64,000 nucleotides of DNA from a bacterium (GCA_021815445.1 JAKAGM010000001.1:787710-851709); one strand, 5' to 3'; shown: positions 11,238 through 17,461, counted from the stretch's first letter. The notes: generated from the letters alone by a model not told the origin. Numbers and translations are program-made.

Positions 11238-11553
11238 TTTTTACCATCGCATTTACGGAATGGTAAAAGTAATTCCACCGGGTAAAGTCGCTACCTACGG
11301 TCAGATCGCCGCGCTTGCCGGATCTCCCCGCGGCGCCCGGATGGTGGGATGGGCGCTCCATGTACTCAGTGATGAACAACTCGTACATACTCCCTGGCAC
11401 CGCGTTATTAACCGCGAGGGACGGATTAGCACAACCTGTTTCGAACACACCTGCGACGAGCAAGCATTGCTTCTTAAAAAAGAGGGTGTTATAGTACGAA
11501 AAAGCAAAGGTAACTACTGGATTGACTTAAAACAGTTTCAGTGGAAAGTGTAG
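11191..11553 (+). CDS. Alkyltransferase-like protein (ATL; MGMT/Ogt DNA-binding domain with Trp replacing the active-site Cys)
   Basis: VATYGQIAALAGSPRGARMVGWALH...PWHRVINREG. PWHRV replaces the PCHRV motif of O6-alkylguanine-DNA alkyltransferases. The start is uncertain and could be the downstream MVKV. Confidence 0.7.
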   Translation: MKKNSQRQLSTKGGDNFYHRIYGMVKVIPPGKVATYGQIAALAGSPRGARMVGWALHVLSDEQLVHTPWHRVINREGRISTTCFEHTCDEQALLLKKEGVIVRKSKGNYWIDLKQFQWKV

Positions 11554-11567
11554 ATATAAGAATGCGG

Positions 11568-11638
11568 GCGGGTATCGTATAATGGTAATACCACAGCTTT
11601 CCAAGCTGTTGCCGGGGGTTCGATTCCCCCTACCCGCT
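11568..11638 (+). tRNA. tRNA-Gly(UCC), no encoded CCA
   Basis: Cloverleaf: acceptor GCGGGTA/TACCCGC, D-stem GTAT/ATAC, anticodon stem ACAGC/GCTGT with loop TTTCCAA, T-arm GGGGG-TTCGATT-CCCCC. Confidence 0.85.
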
Positions 11639-11792
11639 AATCAGCCTTACCAATAACTTTATAATATTCCCTGCCCACAGATCCCTTCAGACCAAGATGT
11701 TGGGGAAATCGAAGGACAGAAGTGAGCAAGGAATGAAATGACGAAGCGAACGTCGGCGGGGTGCCGGTGGCACGCCGCCGCTGTCCAGGACC

Positions 11793-11810
11793 CGATTCCC
11801 CCTACCCGCT
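11793..11810 (+). repeat. Direct repeat of the tRNA-Gly(UCC) 3' end (18 nt, cgattccccctacccgct)
   Basis: Exact copy of tRNA nt 11621..11638, about 170 nt downstream. A third partial copy (ccctacccgct) is at 12053..12063. Confidence 0.6.
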
Positions 11811-12233
11811 TTGTGGATCCAAATAATTCTACTGTTTCTTTAGTTGCGAGAGTACTAGCCGAAGATAGAGAATCGAAGGGGTGCGAACGGGGCAGAGCGA
11901 CTCAACTGCTTGAGTCGCGGCCGTGAGCACGGGTCGATCATGTTCTGAAGGAACGCGAGACCCAGGGAGAGTATGCATATACCACGCTGCCCAGGAAACG
12001 ATTCTTGAGTTCGATAAAATCTAACGGAACGAGACCCCGTTGAATAGCGGGACCCTACCCGCTCAGCGAATTTGCTCGCTGAGCGAGGCTCGCTACAAGC
12101 GTTAATTAATTCTACTCTCTTGAATATGTGCCCGAAAGAAATGGCATCTGTTTTGTTGGTATTTGGTTAAGTTTGAAATACATCCTTCGACTGACAATTT
12201 ATTAAATTTATCTGAATTATTTGTGAATATTAA

Positions 12234-12262
12234 TTGACAAAAAGCTGTTTTTTTGCTATACT
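12234..12262 (+). promoter_or_regulatory. Consensus sigma70 promoter of paralog A
   Basis: TTGACA, a 17-nt spacer, then TATACT. It is followed by a 26-nt A/T-rich leader with no SD. Confidence 0.6.
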
Positions 12263-12288
12263 GCATACATAATAAATAAATAAAAACT

Positions 12289-13767
12289 ATGTCCGACAAT
12301 ACTATCCAACAATGGCTTGCCCAAGCTCGAGCGGCCGGTTTTTCTGATGTGCAAATTACTGCACAGCTGAAACAGCAAGGCTGGGGCGATGATCAAATTC
12401 AAAAACTGGTTGGCGGCGCAACGTCACCTTCGGTAGCAACAGTTACCGATAGGAATCAAGTCGTTCCCTCTGATACTATTCCAGATGTACTGGCGTTATT
12501 TAAGCAAGCATGGGAAATATACAAATCCCGTATCGGAGCATTTGTTGTTATCGGCCTTATTTTTCTTTTCATAGAGGGACTATTGTACTTTGTGAGCTTC
12601 TTACTTGTCGGCGGAACTGCCGTGCTTGGCATCGCTTCATCCGCTACAGTATTTAAGGGCAACACGACTGCACAAATAGCCACCAGCGTTCTTGCTATCA
12701 GTTTCGCTTCCGTAGCTGTTACGGTAATTTTCGGTTTTTTCCTCGCTTGGGTGTGGTCAGCGTTGATCCATACAATTCACACATACAAAGAAAAGATTGA
12801 CCTCGGCACGATAATGTCCCGGGCGTTTAAGACGATGATTCCGCTTTGGTGGGTTTCAATGCTGTTGAGCTTTTTTGTCTCAGGTGCGAGTTTTCTGCTT
12901 TTTATTCCCGGCATCATTTTTGCCGTTTGGTTTTCAAATGCGCTTTTCTTGCCCGTCACTGAAGGTACGCGCGGCATGCAGTCACTGCTGAGAAGCAAAG
13001 AATATGTTCGAGGCGCTTGGTGGGGAGTGCTGGGCCGCCAGCTCGCCTTTGGATTGCTGGTCGGTGCGGCTTTCTTCGGCTTATTCCTCGTTTTAGGCCT
13101 GGGGACGATTTTTCTCCGTAATACTGCCGGAGCTATCGGGGCCATGGCGTCCATAGCGGTAACATTTGTCTACCTTGCAATTACTGCGCTCGTCATGCCT
13201 TTCGGACTTTGCTATTCATATGCTCTTTACAGCGGTTTAAGGGCATATAAAGCACGGGCTGCTATCGATACACAGCAAACAAAGAAAGCCGGGCTGATTA
13301 TCACAGCAATTGCGGGATGGCTGGTCATTCCTTTAATAGGAATTGGAATTGTTGCGTTTGTTACCAGCATGACTAACTCATTCCTGCCTGCATCGACTGG
13401 ATCAAATAATCTTTTTAACTCAAACAGCTCATACAACTTCAATACCAATAGTTTGAATAATACAAACAACAGTACAACGAGCGCAGGAAACAATGACCAA
13501 AGAAAAGCTGACCTCAATACCATTTCTGCCGCACTGGTGAAGTATTTCAATCAGCATTCCGCATATCCCACGGCCCTAACAGATATTGCGACATTGCTTC
13601 CAAACAGCAAGGTGCCCGCCGATCCATCTGATAATACGAGTTATTATTACTACATGAATTCCGACGGGACATTCGATCTCTGCGCGCTGCTAGATGATCC
13701 AACGACATACGTCAAGGAATACTGTATAAAGGGTGCCGCTGATGGAACGATCGCCATTCAACAGTAG
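12289..13767 (+). CDS. Multi-TM membrane protein, paralog A. It has a conserved N-terminal cytoplasmic domain and a C-terminal type IV pilin-like domain.
   Basis: N-terminus MSDNTIQQWLAQARAAGFSDVQITAQLKQQGWGDDQI is shared with the ORF at 14814..15602. About 8 TM helices follow. The C-terminus QRKADLNTISAALVKYFNQHSAYPTALTDI...VPADPSDNTSYYYY...DLCALLDD fits the pilin/pseudopilin globular-domain pattern. Confidence 0.7.
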   Translation: MSDNTIQQWLAQARAAGFSDVQITAQLKQQGWGDDQIQKLVGGATSPSVATVTDRNQVVPSDTIPDVLALFKQAWEIYKSRIGAFVVIGLIFLFIEGLLYFVSFLLVGGTAVLGIASSATVFKGNTTAQIATSVLAISFASVAVTVIFGFFLAWVWSALIHTIHTYKEKIDLGTIMSRAFKTMIPLWWVSMLLSFFVSGASFLLFIPGIIFAVWFSNALFLPVTEGTRGMQSLLRSKEYVRGAWWGVLGRQLAFGLLVGAAFFGLFLVLGLGTIFLRNTAGAIGAMASIAVTFVYLAITALVMPFGLCYSYALYSGLRAYKARAAIDTQQTKKAGLIITAIAGWLVIPLIGIGIVAFVTSMTNSFLPASTGSNNLFNSNSSYNFNTNSLNNTNNSTTSAGNNDQRKADLNTISAALVKYFNQHSAYPTALTDIATLLPNSKVPADPSDNTSYYYYMNSDGTFDLCALLDDPTTYVKEYCIKGAADGTIAIQQ

Positions 13768-13801
13768 TGCGTAACATAGACACAGGATTCATCATAGGAT
13801 C

Positions 13802-13834
13802 AAAAAACCGCTGGACTACTCCAGCAGTTTTTTT
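13802..13834. terminator. Bidirectional rho-independent terminator
   Basis: An A6 run, the hairpin GCTGGA-ctac-TCCAGC, then a T7 run, between the convergent gene ends at 13767 and 13842. Confidence 0.55.
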
Positions 13835-13841
13835 ATAGTAG

Positions 13842-14081
13842 TTACTTCTGCATTCCTGACGGAGGCTGGCTCTGCGCTCCGGGTATCTGACCCGCCCCGC
13901 CGTGCATCCTTCCGCCCCGCATCAACATCCTGAGCCCCACGAGAATCACCAAAACCGGAAACAGCCACTTCGCTATACCTCCGTGGAGGATTCCGTAATT
14001 ATTGAGCAGCCACAATACCCCGAGAATGACCACTAGGAGTCCAAGAAACATTTTTCCGCCTCTTTGCTCTCTCATCATCAT
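13842..14081 (-). CDS. Small membrane protein (2 TM, Gly/Arg-rich tail), hypothetical
   Basis: MMMREQRGGKMFLGLLVVILGVLWLL..., preceded by a strong RBS (AAAGGAGGTGA, 6 nt, ATG). The ORF track's longer start lacks an RBS. Confidence 0.55.
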   Translation of the reverse strand: MMMREQRGGKMFLGLLVVILGVLWLLNNYGILHGGIAKWLFPVLVILVGLRMLMRGGRMHGGAGQIPGAQSQPPSGMQK

Positions 14082-14157
14082 CGAAATCACCTCCTTTCGT
14101 AGGTAACTGTACCGCCGATAGGTTTTTTCGACAAGAAACGTGTTGCAGGAGCCGCTC

Positions 14158-14186
14158 TTGACATATTTTCCCGTTGTGATAAGATG
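14158..14186 (+). promoter_or_regulatory. Candidate promoter for the 3D-domain gene
   Basis: TTGACA, a 16-17 nt spacer, then TAAGAT. A hairpin plus T5 (14205..14245) lies in the leader. Confidence 0.35.
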
Positions 14187-14259
14187 CTCGGTCAACCTCC
14201 CAAACCCCAATAAATAGGGAGGTTTTTGAATAGGACAATATCTTCACATCCTCACCCAA

Positions 14260-14751
14260 ATGACTACAAATCGGCGCACAAGACGAAAAATAGCATACAT
14301 GCTCAAGATCGTGTCTGTCATCGTTGTCTGGGAGTTTGCCTTCCCGGGACACGCAGTAGCCTATGAGCAACCCGCCGTTATCGCGCCCGCAGAAACGAAG
14401 TCTGCCGAGGTAACGCATACCAATAGATTGCCTCACAGTCCGGATAAGCCCCGGGAAGTCGCTCGACGCGTGACTCGTATCACTATCACAGCGTATTCTT
14501 CGACCCGCGACCAGACAGATAGTGACCCGTTCACTACAGCTTCCGGAACTAAAGTTCGTGACGGAGTCATTGCCGCGAATTTCCTCCCGATTGGAACACG
14601 TGTTCGCATCCCGGAATATTTCGGCGACAAAGTGTTCGTCGTCGAAGACCGCATGAGCGCACGTCACTGGAATATGGCGGATATCTGGATGAGCTCACGC
14701 AATCAGGCAAAACAATGGGGTGCAAGGTATACAAAATTAGAAATACTTTAA
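14260..14751 (+). CDS. 3D-domain protein (MltA/YuiC-like cell-wall-binding or cleaving domain) with an N-terminal signal/anchor
   Basis: ITAYSSTRDQTDSDPFTTASGTKVRDGVIAAN...GTRVRIPEYFGDKVFVVEDRM is the aspartate-rich 3D signature. The N-terminus has an RR-containing n-region followed by a hydrophobic stretch. Confidence 0.7.
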   Translation: MTTNRRTRRKIAYMLKIVSVIVVWEFAFPGHAVAYEQPAVIAPAETKSAEVTHTNRLPHSPDKPREVARRVTRITITAYSSTRDQTDSDPFTTASGTKVRDGVIAANFLPIGTRVRIPEYFGDKVFVVEDRMSARHWNMADIWMSSRNQAKQWGARYTKLEIL

Positions 14752-14760
14752 TTCATCAAT

Positions 14761-14790
14761 AAAGGGCCCCGAGAATACCGGGGCTCTTTT
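14761..14790. terminator. Bidirectional rho-independent terminator
   Basis: GGGCCCCG-agaatac-CGGGGCTC followed by TTTT and preceded by an A-rich tract, between convergent gene ends. Confidence 0.55.
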
Positions 14791-14813
14791 GCATTGTAGA
14801 GAGATTACTGTCC

Positions 14814-15602
14814 TTAGTAATTCCTTACGGAGGAGATTGAGACGATTATCGCGAAGATAACTACCAAAACACCAAGCGCCTGTAATGCAAGAAAAACAAT
14901 TGCCCACGGCACCCATTTCTTTTGAGACTCTTTAAATTTTTCCACACTCGGCCACTGCTTTGCCTGCCACGCCCATTCGTTGCCTTTGATCCCAAGCACG
15001 ATCCACCAGAAGATGTTCACGATCGGGACCATAGTGAGCAGAGAGATCCACACATTATAGTATATTCCCCAAATCCATGTGAGCATAGATGCTCCCCAAT
15101 TCCATCCGCTGATTTCACTCGGCAACACCGACAAACTGCCTTTCCCGGATCGTTCATCATAACCTTCTGTAATGACGGGACTTTTTTGCACCAAAAAAAT
15201 TATGCCAAGTGGTACAAAAACAAAAATACCCAGGACTGCCAGTAGCCCAATTAAACCGAGAAGCCATTGAATAATATTTATCGTTGAATTTGAAATGTCG
15301 GCTTGCTGGGCTAAAAAAATAACCACTGCCCAAGCGATCAGAGTAAGGACAAGGACAGCAAATGGAAGACAAATAAATAAAATGCCCAATCTTTTGTGCT
15401 TTGATGCAACCGCATATGTAGCGCCTGTGCCCGACATCGGCTGACTGCCGCCCGGAGCAGGTCTCAGGGAAGAATAACCAGTAAGCTGAAATATCTGTCC
15501 ATCGTCCCAGCCCTGTTGTTTGAGCTGGGCGGCAATTTGTACATCAGGAAGACCGGCTGCTCGAGCCTGGGCTAGCCATTGTTGGATAGTATTTTCGGAC
15601 AT
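14814..15602 (-). CDS. Multi-TM membrane protein, paralog B, sharing its N-terminal domain with paralog A
   Basis: N-terminus MSENTIQQWLAQARAAGLPDVQIAAQLKQQGWDDGQI, followed by about 6 TM helices. Confidence 0.7.
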   Translation of the reverse strand: MSENTIQQWLAQARAAGLPDVQIAAQLKQQGWDDGQIFQLTGYSSLRPAPGGSQPMSGTGATYAVASKHKRLGILFICLPFAVLVLTLIAWAVVIFLAQQADISNSTINIIQWLLGLIGLLAVLGIFVFVPLGIIFLVQKSPVITEGYDERSGKGSLSVLPSEISGWNWGASMLTWIWGIYYNVWISLLTMVPIVNIFWWIVLGIKGNEWAWQAKQWPSVEKFKESQKKWVPWAIVFLALQALGVLVVIFAIIVSISSVRNY

Positions 15603-15626
15603 AGTTTTATTTGGTTATTATACGTT

Positions 15627-15656
15627 TAGTATAGCAAAAAAAATTGACTTTTGTCG
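15627..15656 (-). promoter_or_regulatory. Sigma70 promoter of paralog B, homologous to the paralog A promoter and leader
   Basis: Minus sense: TCGACA, an 18-nt spacer, then TATACT. The leader ...ATAATAACCAAATAAAACTATGTCC aligns with the paralog A leader. Confidence 0.5.
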
Positions 15657-15755
15657 ATGCACCCACAAACTACATTTGAAGATTTTGCTTTTTGTAAAAC
15701 AAAAAGACGAGTTATGAACTCGCTCTTGTCGGTACGTGTTACCCGTCGCTATAAA

Positions 15756-16160
15756 TTAATGACTTAGAATCAGCTTGAGCCCCAAGGATTTCAATACTTT
15801 TCTAGCCCCAGGCAGTTTCTCCTTTTTCACCATCACATAATCCTTTGAGTATGTTGATATGATAAGAATGTTCGTCCCCTTTTCTGCAAGAGCCTTACTT
15901 ATCGCTGCCAGGAAACCCACTGAATAAAAAGGGATTGAAACATTAAGCGCAATCAAAGCGTAGACGTCCCTGTTCTTCTCAATGAGACTCAAACCTTGAA
16001 AATTCTGCGTCACAACAGTAATTTCGTCTTGGTCGATGCTCAGCATAAAGAAATCATGTTTCTTGGGCACAGACTTAACCTTTGCATAAACAAAGTCCCC
16101 ATTCACTACATTGAATGTGCTCTCCTGAATAATTTTCTTAAGGTCTTTGTCCTGTTCCAT
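15756..16160 (-). CDS. ACT-domain-containing protein (ACT_7-like), hypothetical
   Basis: 134 aa from MEQDKDLKK. Beta-alpha-beta-beta-alpha-beta-like pattern. The ORF track's longer start (16220) runs into hairpin sequence. Confidence 0.45.
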   Translation of the reverse strand: MEQDKDLKKIIQESTFNVVNGDFVYAKVKSVPKKHDFFMLSIDQDEITVVTQNFQGLSLIEKNRDVYALIALNVSIPFYSVGFLAAISKALAEKGTNILIISTYSKDYVMVKKEKLPGARKVLKSLGLKLILSH

Positions 16161-16277
16161 ATTGATCGTGGTGGGCCAGGTGGGAGTCGTCCGGTCATTC
16201 GACCGGACGCCCCGTCGCATGACGGGGCGAACCCATAATACTCACACCTGTTGTGCCGAACCAATGATTTACCTTTT

Positions 16278-16361
16278 TGCCGCCGGTCGGACTCGAACCG
16301 ACAAGGCCTTGCGACCGAGGGATTTTAAGTCCCTTGTGTATACCAATTCCACCACGGCGGC
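16278..16361 (-). tRNA. tRNA-Leu(UAA), long variable arm, no encoded CCA
   Basis: Revcomp GCCGCCGTGGTGGAATTGGTATACACAAGGGACTTAAAATCCCTCGGTCGCAAGGCCTTGTCGGTTCGAGTCCGACCGGCGGCA. Anticodon loop CTTAAAA. Confidence 0.85.
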
Positions 16362-16369
16362 ATCTGTAT

Positions 16370-17461
16370 CTATAGTTTTCTCACACTACCACCCGTTCCG
16401 TCAACTTCGACGGTATCACCATCATGAAGTATCGAGGTCGCATCTTTTGTATTCACTACACAGGGTATTTTGAGCTCGCGGGCCATGATTGCAGGATGCG
16501 AGGTAAGACCTCCGAAGTCAGTAATGATAGCAGCAACTTTCCCAAAAATAGGTAAAAACTCGGGGGTGGTGATATGCGCGATAAGCACGTCGCCCTGCCG
16601 AACTTTAGGAAAGTCGTCTGAAGATTTGACAACGACGGCGCGACCATGGGCAATTCCTTGAGACGCACCAAGACCTTTCAGAATAGCATCGGGAGAACTC
16701 GTCGGCCGGGTTGATGTTTCAAGCTTCTGGGCTAAGTTATTCATCAAGCGCGAGGTGGTAAAGTCGATAAACCGGTATCCCACTCCGCCGGTGTAAAAGA
16801 TAAATTCAAAGTAGCCTTTGACGAAACCTGCATCGTTGACGGAGAAAGGCAGTTTGCGTCCTTTGGCGTCGAGGAAGCGCACGGCGGCGTAGATAATCCG
16901 TTGATCTGCATTCAGGGCGGAGGAAGCGGGAAAAGCTTTGAGATCAACTTGCTCAGCATGTAAGGCATTCTTTGGGTCAGAAGTACCTTGAGTCAGCGCT
17001 GACGGTTCACCGCGCTTCCATTCTACATACACGCTGGTATCGGTAATGAGAAAAATACCGCTATACTCGGCTCGGTGGTTTTCCCAAATACTGAGCTTGT
17101 ACATCTGAGGAGAAGGCGTGAGCGAACGGGTGAATTCAATACATTCCTGTTGCGATACGCCGTGCTTGCGGACACGGTGCAGGGTTTTAGCATGCTCATC
17201 TTTCGGCTCAGCTTTGATGGAAAAACGGTCGGACTTCGCAGCCGCAAAAAAGTCCTTGAACTTTTTTGTCTGATTCAAAATATCGTCGGCAGAGAAATGC
17301 GTGTGTTCATCGATAGGCAAACCGAGAACATCGCGCAACGTATGGAGACGTGGCCACTTGTTGAGATCCTGGTCTATAAGGTCCTGAATGTCGTCAGGCG
17401 ATACTTTTGGATTAGCGGCACGCAAGCCTTGCAGCCACTCGGTCATGGAAAATGTTTTCAT
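16370..17461 (-). CDS. PEP-utilizing enzyme mobile (phosphohistidine) domain protein with an unknown N-terminal domain
   Basis: C-terminus FGGLTSHPAIMARELKIPCVV matches the PEP-utilizers signature (GGxTSHAAIxARExGIP). The N-terminal 260 aa have no recognisable ATP-grasp or PEP-binding domain. Confidence 0.65.
   Translation of the reverse strand: MKTFSMTEWLQGLRAANPKVSPDDIQDLIDQDLNKWPRLHTLRDVLGLPIDEHTHFSADDILNQTKKFKDFFAAAKSDRFSIKAEPKDEHAKTLHRVRKHGVSQQECIEFTRSLTPSPQMYKLSIWENHRAEYSGIFLITDTSVYVEWKRGEPSALTQGTSDPKNALHAEQVDLKAFPASSALNADQRIIYAAVRFLDAKGRKLPFSVNDAGFVKGYFEFIFYTGGVGYRFIDFTTSRLMNNLAQKLETSTRPTSSPDAILKGLGASQGIAHGRAVVVKSSDDFPKVRQGDVLIAHITTPEFLPIFGKVAAIITDFGGLTSHPAIMARELKIPCVVNTKDATSILHDGDTVEVDGTGGSVRKL

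Follow-up and report, generated by a model that had tools for sequence, protein, structure and literature searches.

Two convergent genes in a 64,000-nucleotide (nt) stretch of bacterial DNA (GCA_021815445.1 JAKAGM010000001.1:787710-851709; hereafter the window, in whose coordinates all positions are given) begin with nearly the same promoter, leader and first 37 codons. They are named here gene A (12289..13767, + strand, 492 amino acids, aa) and gene B (15602..14814, - strand, 262 aa), and they encode two unrelated integral membrane proteins of a bacterium of the Patescibacteria, or Candidate Phyla Radiation (CPR), in each of which a head module and a flexible linker precede the first transmembrane (TM) helix. 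The explanation that we consider probable is that a tract comprising promoter, leader and the first 37 codons was copied between the two genes, the inverted repeat formed by the two copies being a by-product of this event and not a switch. The locus is thus an instance of ordinary local paralogy; it is neither a SHOCT-domain locus, nor a genetic switch, nor a conserved multigene system.

The extent of the shared DNA was determined in two ways. A repeat finder located the inner arms of the inverted repeat at 12283-12398 and 15493-15608 (116 nt, 85% complementary), with an upstream extension at 12248-12285 and 15605-15642 (38 nt, 82%) and a spacing of 3094 nt between the inner ends of the arms. 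In the pairwise alignment of A and B, a weak similarity begins about 10-15 nt 5′ of the -35 box, becomes strong from the -35 box onwards and ends abruptly at codon 37, which falls within helix 3 of the head domain. The clear homology therefore amounts to some 150 nt; with the weak part 5′ of the -35 box it is about 175 nt. In these terms the left arm (12222..12398, + strand) contains the promoter, the leader and codons 1-37 of A, being clear from 12248 and weak back to about 12222, and the right arm (15493..15668, - strand) contains the same elements of B. An earlier note on this DNA had described a 180-bp inverted repeat, with about 85% identity over the first 110 coding nt: the repeat is real, but its length is rather about 150-175 bp. 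The three longest stretches in which the arms agree exactly measure 20, 15 and 14 nt.

The same note had drawn up a 37-residue pattern common to the two proteins, together with a shared promoter and leader, and 31 of the first 37 residues do match exactly in the manner that it described (33 of 42 over the first 42). By the Nei-Gojobori method, the 37 codons differ by 11.5 synonymous and 6.5 non-synonymous changes, which gives a proportion of synonymous differences (pS) of 0.48, a synonymous divergence (dS) of 0.76, a non-synonymous divergence (dN) of 0.079 and a dN/dS ratio of about 0.1; the proposal that the duplication is old and under purifying selection is in agreement with these values. 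Identity at codon positions 1, 2 and 3 is 34/37, 35/37 and 24/37. Upstream of the genes, 43 of the 56 aligned columns are identical (77%), with several indels, so that about 35% of the third codon positions and about 23% of the upstream columns now differ. As the upstream identity of 77% is not significantly higher than the 65% of the third positions (Fisher p 0.24), the idea of an extra constraint on the promoter was rejected. Antisense pairing of the A and B mRNAs was also rejected, since their 5′ ends have the same sense and hence are not complementary.

Comparison with the heads found in other proteins bears on the origin of this likeness. Among 428 instances of the module, the heads of A and B are mutual nearest neighbours, with 80% identity. 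Each of them has its next best match, at 50%, in the head of P0122, the closest homologue in the A family, and the median over the 428 is 23%; the B head reaches 41% at best with the heads of B homologues. Diverged heads of the same family are found in other genomes on the A-type homologues P0122 and P0124, and they also occur on the B-type homologues P0003, P0004, P0010 and others, so that the presence of a head on each of the two genes probably predates the copying. Past codon 37 both proteins still conform to the family pattern (L40, G42), with codons that are unrelated. Because the homology ends inside helix 3 and the codons beyond it are unrelated, a conversion tract fits better than fusion of a whole domain.

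The scenario would then be as follows. A tract of about 150-175 bp, made up of the promoter, the leader and codons 1-37, would have been copied in this lineage from one gene onto the other, A being a possible donor, through gene conversion or else through a duplication that replaced the resident sequence. A and B being convergent, the two copies read as an inverted repeat. Afterwards the synonymous and non-coding sites would have drifted while the protein sequence of the head was kept (dN/dS about 0.1), and about one third of the silent sites would have changed since. The closest known situation is gene conversion or segmental duplication between paralogous 5′ segments of one genome (concerted evolution). 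The A/B pair resembles it in having a short tract of DNA identity with a sharp boundary, over the promoter, leader and first codons of two otherwise unrelated genes, and copies far closer to each other than to the heads of other genomes. The difference from a fresh gene conversion is that the A/B event is old (dS about 0.76), with donor and recipient no longer distinguishable.

Another possibility is that no DNA was copied, and that two heads inherited from the same ancient family were made to look alike by strong selection for the same partner, together with the promoter consensus of the genome. That homologues of both A and B possess heads elsewhere is compatible with this, as are the frequent use of the extended -10 motif in the source genome and the dS of 0.76, which is substantial. 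However, the conservation of 24 third positions out of 37 and the 77% identity over the leader and the -35 flank are unexpected for sequences that have long been independent. Moreover, the B head is as near to the P0122 head (50%) as the A head is, whereas B homologues do not exceed 41%, and the similarity stops sharply at codon 37. We find it unlikely, on balance, that the heads became or remained so similar without copying.

Several points nevertheless weigh against the copying scenario. The search for head copies, which found two, covered the 64-kb window only, out of a genome of about 880 kb. No close relative of the source genome was found, which leaves the direction and the age of the copying uncalibrated. 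The rate estimates are noisy, all of them being derived from 37 codons only. The share of the upstream identity that is due to TTTTTTTGCTATACT corresponds to the general promoter consensus of the genome, so that the case for homology in the non-coding part rests mainly on the leader and the -35 region. Finally, the role of the head as a cytoplasmic docking or oligomerisation unit is deduced from its position alone.

As to the promoters themselves, the earlier note had proposed consensus -35/-10 elements before A and B, and indeed the best two sigma-70-like matches in 11500-16400 stand before these genes. The predicted promoter of A (12234..12262, + strand) reads TTGACA, 17 nt, TG-n-TATACT, i.e. 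11 of the 12 consensus positions with an extended -10 TG, and is separated from the ATG by a 26-nt A/T-rich stretch without a Shine-Dalgarno (SD) motif. The predicted promoter of B (15628..15657, - strand) reads TCGACA, 18 nt, TG-n-TATACT (10/12, also with the extended -10 TG). The leaders of both genes are A/T-rich and both lack an SD motif. These features are not peculiar to the pair. TTTTTTGCTATACT-like boxes, in which a run of T is followed by TGCTATACT (the extended -10), occur six times in the window, at 12249, 15628, 27463, 42394, 52934 and 53484, against 0.41 expected; such boxes also precede unrelated genes and a tRNA-Leu(gag), and the combination looks like the strong-promoter consensus of the source genome. 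Their overrepresentation means that part of the identity upstream of A and B is consensus and not homology. An SD motif is likewise absent before 18 of the 21 called genes around the locus, a count that includes the small gene discussed below, scored at a mis-called TTG start; an SD-like motif is seen at 2 of the 21 called starts (region 4814-25602), and in addition before the small gene at its corrected start, 14081. In several genes of the same region a -10-like box stands no more than 25-30 nt from the ATG. The sequence pattern suggests that this organism uses short or absent leaders and mostly SD-independent initiation, and the association of an SD-less leader with a TGCTATACT promoter is typical of the source genome rather than special to A and B. 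Taken together, the common leader type, the common promoter core and the modest upstream identity fit a single copying of one tract followed by drift, with the protein under selection.

A and B would be driven by near-identical strong promoters, with short SD-less leaders, and would both turn the same head towards the cytoplasm. Since promoters, leaders and heads are all nearly identical, the two proteins are probably co-expressed and probably contact either the same cytoplasmic partner or each other.

The arrangement of the two copies had also raised the possibility of a recombinationally invertible segment, in which the 3.1 kb between the arms would flip and exchange heads and promoters between the two gene bodies, in the manner of phase variation or of a shufflon. 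A long inverted repeat does bracket two gene bodies that share a 5′ module, and the geometry is like that of some known switches: in Hin/Gin-type segments, shufflons and fimS, gene bodies are likewise enclosed by inverted repeats, which here measure 116 + 38 nt per arm. No recombinase or invertase is present among the genes called over about 10 kb on either side, which are housekeeping genes or genes without known function, none having a recombinase Pfam domain, and the arms are long and diverged, unlike the short exact sites of those systems. RecA-dependent recombination in E. coli usually needs about 23-27 bp of identity; with arms that are 85% identical and a longest exact run of 20 nt, the repeat is below this usual requirement. 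The search for the second orientation gave the same answer. Two independent assemblies, from ENA and Logan, match the window at 100% identity and in a collinear arrangement, so that a single orientation is seen at the level of assemblies. All 10 contigs carrying B grouped with mostly the same neighbour genes. The clusters of A and B at 90% identity have a single member each, with next matches at 33% and 51%; the chimeras expected from an inversion, which would be about 98% identical to A or B, are thus absent from the collection. A search of metagenome contigs of the Joint Genome Institute (JGI) for the shared 20-mer produced 4 matches, all of them chance occurrences in unrelated DNA. In addition, as each arm has a promoter and a near-identical head, an inversion would be without regulatory effect, contrary to the known switches, and would alter the products by up to 6 residues. 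Taking all this into account, we regard an invertible segment as extremely improbable.

What the two proteins share is a member of a very large unnamed domain family whose members usually adjoin TM helices. In AlphaFold2 (AF2) models, the heads of A and B each consist of three helices (predicted local distance difference test score, pLDDT, of 80-94), followed by a disordered linker. The head of A (12289..12411, + strand) comprises aa 1-43, with helices at 3-15, 20-29 and 34-43, and that of B (nt 15480-15602, - strand) comprises aa 1-41, with helices at 3-15, 20-29 and 34-41. The earlier note had compared the module to SHOCT, another short helical domain that is commonly found on membrane proteins. 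This assignment did not survive the profile searches: with E values up to 1 allowed, SHOCT (PF09851) matched none of 14 modules. The head is without a qualifying Pfam or NCBIfam model, and the gathering score of no family is reached. The commonest sub-threshold Pfam match is DUF7626, in 7 of the 14 members (the head scores 21.7 bits, the cut-off being 27); RecX_HTH1 and UBA give weak sub-threshold matches, in multi-repeat proteins only. With UBA-like (PF00627), RecX-type (PF21982) and DUF7626 domains the head has in common a size of about 40 aa, and a helix-loop-helix-loop-helix arrangement in which helix 1 is followed by a conserved Gly and helix 2 by a G-W turn, but all its members remain below the gathering scores of these families. 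The best PDB profile matches are de novo designed helical repeats, there being no natural relative in the PDB, and a description of the module was not found in the literature on proteins of CPR and DPANN organisms, on three-helix domains or on DUF7626.

That the module might exist beyond these two genes was, in contrast, amply confirmed. A profile built from 14 heads of A-type and B-type homologues was run against 1.84 billion cluster representatives, 7447 of which matched at E ≤ 1e-3 and 324 at E ≤ 1e-10. Many matches have tandem copies of the module, up to 13. The architecture of the 149 best matches was assessed with a simple hydropathy scan: C-terminal arrays placed after a hydrophobic helix are the commonest arrangement (82/149, with a median of 42 aa to the TM helix), followed by N-terminal heads before a hydrophobic helix (27/149, median 31 aa) and by N-terminal modules without a TM helix (24/149, some of these being short sequences); of the remaining 16, 7 have C-terminal arrays but lack a TM helix, and 9 are built otherwise. 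The module does not always head polytopic proteins, a point that the earlier note had raised, since it heads single-pass and soluble proteins too. In Patescibacteria it occurs as a single N-terminal head, and tandem C-terminal arrays are found on giant proteins. Three of the giants that were looked up are named by their sources: two are named as Woesearchaeota proteins, a protein of 3429 aa is named a LamG-like jellyroll protein and one of 5173 aa a parallel beta-helix repeat protein.

Three features place the head, by prediction, on the cytoplasmic face of the membrane. The basic residues KHKR precede TM1 of B; the 7 TM helices of A would put its Cys-bearing pilin-like domain outside and the head inside; and the arrays of the giant proteins follow the last TM helix. 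Judging from this position alone, the likeliest role of the head is to attach membrane proteins to a partner in the cytoplasm or to one another.

Beyond the head, the two proteins are unrelated. In A, the head and a linker are followed by a seven-helix core (7 TM helices predicted by hydropathy), an Asn/Ser-rich linker and a C-terminal pseudopilin-like domain. The core of A has itself no match to PF06790 (UPF0259) at E ≤ 1, and the relation to this family is through homologues: a precomputed PF06790 match exists in eight of them (P0123-P0130, with E values of 5e-33 to 7e-5 against A). The C-terminal domain (aa 395-492, nt 13471-13764, + strand), which has two conserved Cys, was rightly described as pilin-like. 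Its 98 aa are modelled by AF2, with a pLDDT of about 90, as a helix (395-423) and four strands (453-456, 462-468, 476-482 and 488-491), and 9 of the 14 PDB matches to a three-sequence profile of the domain are GspG, EpsG or pilins, all of them weak. Besides the Cys pair, the domain has the motif R-x-x-D-L-x-x-I...Y-P...P-x-D-P. The resemblance to the globular domains of GspG and type IV pilins lies in the long helix packed on a four-stranded sheet in the AF2 model. The domain differs in forming, as a fusion, the last part of a seven-helix membrane protein, and in that no prepilin leader or cleavage/methylation motif precedes residue 395. Dedicated models fell short of their cut-offs, with an E value of 0.42 and 11.1 bits (cut-off 21) for Pfam T2SSG (PF08334) on A, and 15.5 bits (cut-off 88.85) for TIGR01710 on the C-terminal domain of P0122.

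In B, the head and linker lead into a membrane domain containing RSGKG, GWNWGA and GNEWAW, for which there is no covering Pfam or NCBIfam model and no PDB relative. Foldseek searches of the PDB with the whole models of A and B gave no match at E ≤ 1e-3, and only generic helical bundles. The C-terminal membrane domain of B (14814-15400) is of about 110 aa, with GWNWGA and GNEWAW invariant. Matches to the body of B number at least 611 among proteins and at least 581 among genome loci, and come from Patescibacteria, Chloroflexota, Gammaproteobacteria, Ignavibacteria and others. The N-termini of this family are interchangeable: there may be none, a zinc ribbon (PF13240), a three-helix head, or both. 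The best genome locus for B is in a metagenome-assembled genome (MAG) of Gottesmanbacteria (50% identity), and a B-family paralogue with 46% identity was noticed in OY970358.1 ('uncultured bacterium MFD00082.bin.c.7, chromosome 1'). Nearly all the named homologues of A and B are from Patescibacteria.

Two more genes lie between the arms. The first (13842..14081, - strand) encodes a membrane protein of 79 aa with a LiaI-LiaF-like TM region, and matches PF18917 with 28.6 bits, above the cut-off of 27 (aa 54-96 of the long open reading frame, ORF). The gene callers of the public assemblies start it at TTG 14210, which gives a form of 122 aa (13842-14210, - strand) overlapping the divergent promoter region of the next gene. 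The strong SD AAAGGAGGTGA located 8 nt before ATG 14081, which is the perfect ribosome-binding site that had been attributed to this gene, indicates the 79-aa product. The second (14260..14751, + strand) encodes a 3D-type (YuiC-like) protein of 163 aa with a signal peptide. Its description as a secreted 3D-domain protein is upheld as a resemblance: the best PDB match is B. subtilis YuiC (4wlk, 4wjt; E 0.005, aa 45-157), and the match to Pfam 3D (PF06725; E 0.052, 14.2 bits) is below the cut-off of 23.8. Terminator-like hairpins are present, as had been noted, in both convergent gaps: GCTGGA-ctac-TCCAGC at 13810..13825, between an A-run and a T-run and between the stops of A and the small gene, looks from its sequence like a bidirectional terminator common to these two genes, and GCCCCG-agaatac-CGGGGC at 14766..14784 separates the convergent stops of the 3D gene and gene B.

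It may be asked whether the shared head unites A, the small LiaF-TM-like gene, the 3D gene and B into a system devoted to the envelope or the cell surface. Each of the four encodes a membrane or secreted protein, of which one has a pilin-like domain and another a cell-wall-type domain, and the four genes sit together between two tRNA genes, tRNA-Gly and tRNA-Leu. The co-occurrence with 3D or pilin-like genes that the earlier note had proposed to look for is however not seen in the B-family loci examined. None of 80 such loci of other species has a homologue of the 3D or of the small protein within 6 kb, and none has a convincing A-type neighbour, two of the 80 having weak partial matches only to the A profile (E 5e-6 and 3e-4). 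The closest homologues of A and B sit in unrelated gene contexts, the neighbours being ClpB, an M48 peptidase and LemA for A, and AbiEii and a deaminase for the closest context-bearing homologue of B. Furthermore, the genes are single units, convergent or divergent, with promoter-like and terminator-like sites of their own. We consider such a system very unlikely; the small LiaF-TM-like gene and the 3D gene are unrelated neighbours of A and B.

A genomic island between the tRNA-Gly and tRNA-Leu genes was considered and rejected, the composition being flat over 9-19 kb and no integrase being present; a search with Rfam at E ≤ 1 over 11400-16500 returned the two tRNAs only. No convincing ORF is found in the approximately 650 nt that separate tRNA-Gly(tcc) (11567-11639) from A. 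An exact repeat of the final 18 nt of this tRNA (CGATTCCCCCTACCCGCT) lies at 11793-11810, preceded by a GGCGGGG that could pair as acceptor strand, and 11 nt (CCCTACCCGCT) are repeated once more at 12055-12065. ARAGORN and Rfam (E ≤ 1) found nothing in 11640-12230, and fold z-scores for the + strand were -2.0 (11650-11790) and -2.6 (11960-12100). These repeats could be a decayed copy of the tRNA, old integration scars or an unrecognised RNA.

The locus itself is of little importance. The modestly interesting by-product of its study is the unnamed, membrane-adjoining domain of about 40 residues. At this point we may only speculate that in Patescibacteria and DPANN archaea the head serves as a very widespread docking domain, hitherto undescribed and located in the cytoplasm, which would tie surface proteins to a shared intracellular partner, the homogenisation of A and B then reflecting selection for co-expression and for matching to that partner. 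The surface proteins concerned would include the giant LamG or beta-helix proteins with their C-terminal arrays, the pilin-like fusions and the GWNWGA-type family. We put forward this broader picture tentatively, and think it rather unlikely. The ultra-small CPR and DPANN organisms are thought to live attached to hosts. Should the module be a shared cytoplasmic tail, it would offer a handle on what their surface proteins connect to inside the cell, and the profile of the module would improve the annotation of many hypothetical proteins.

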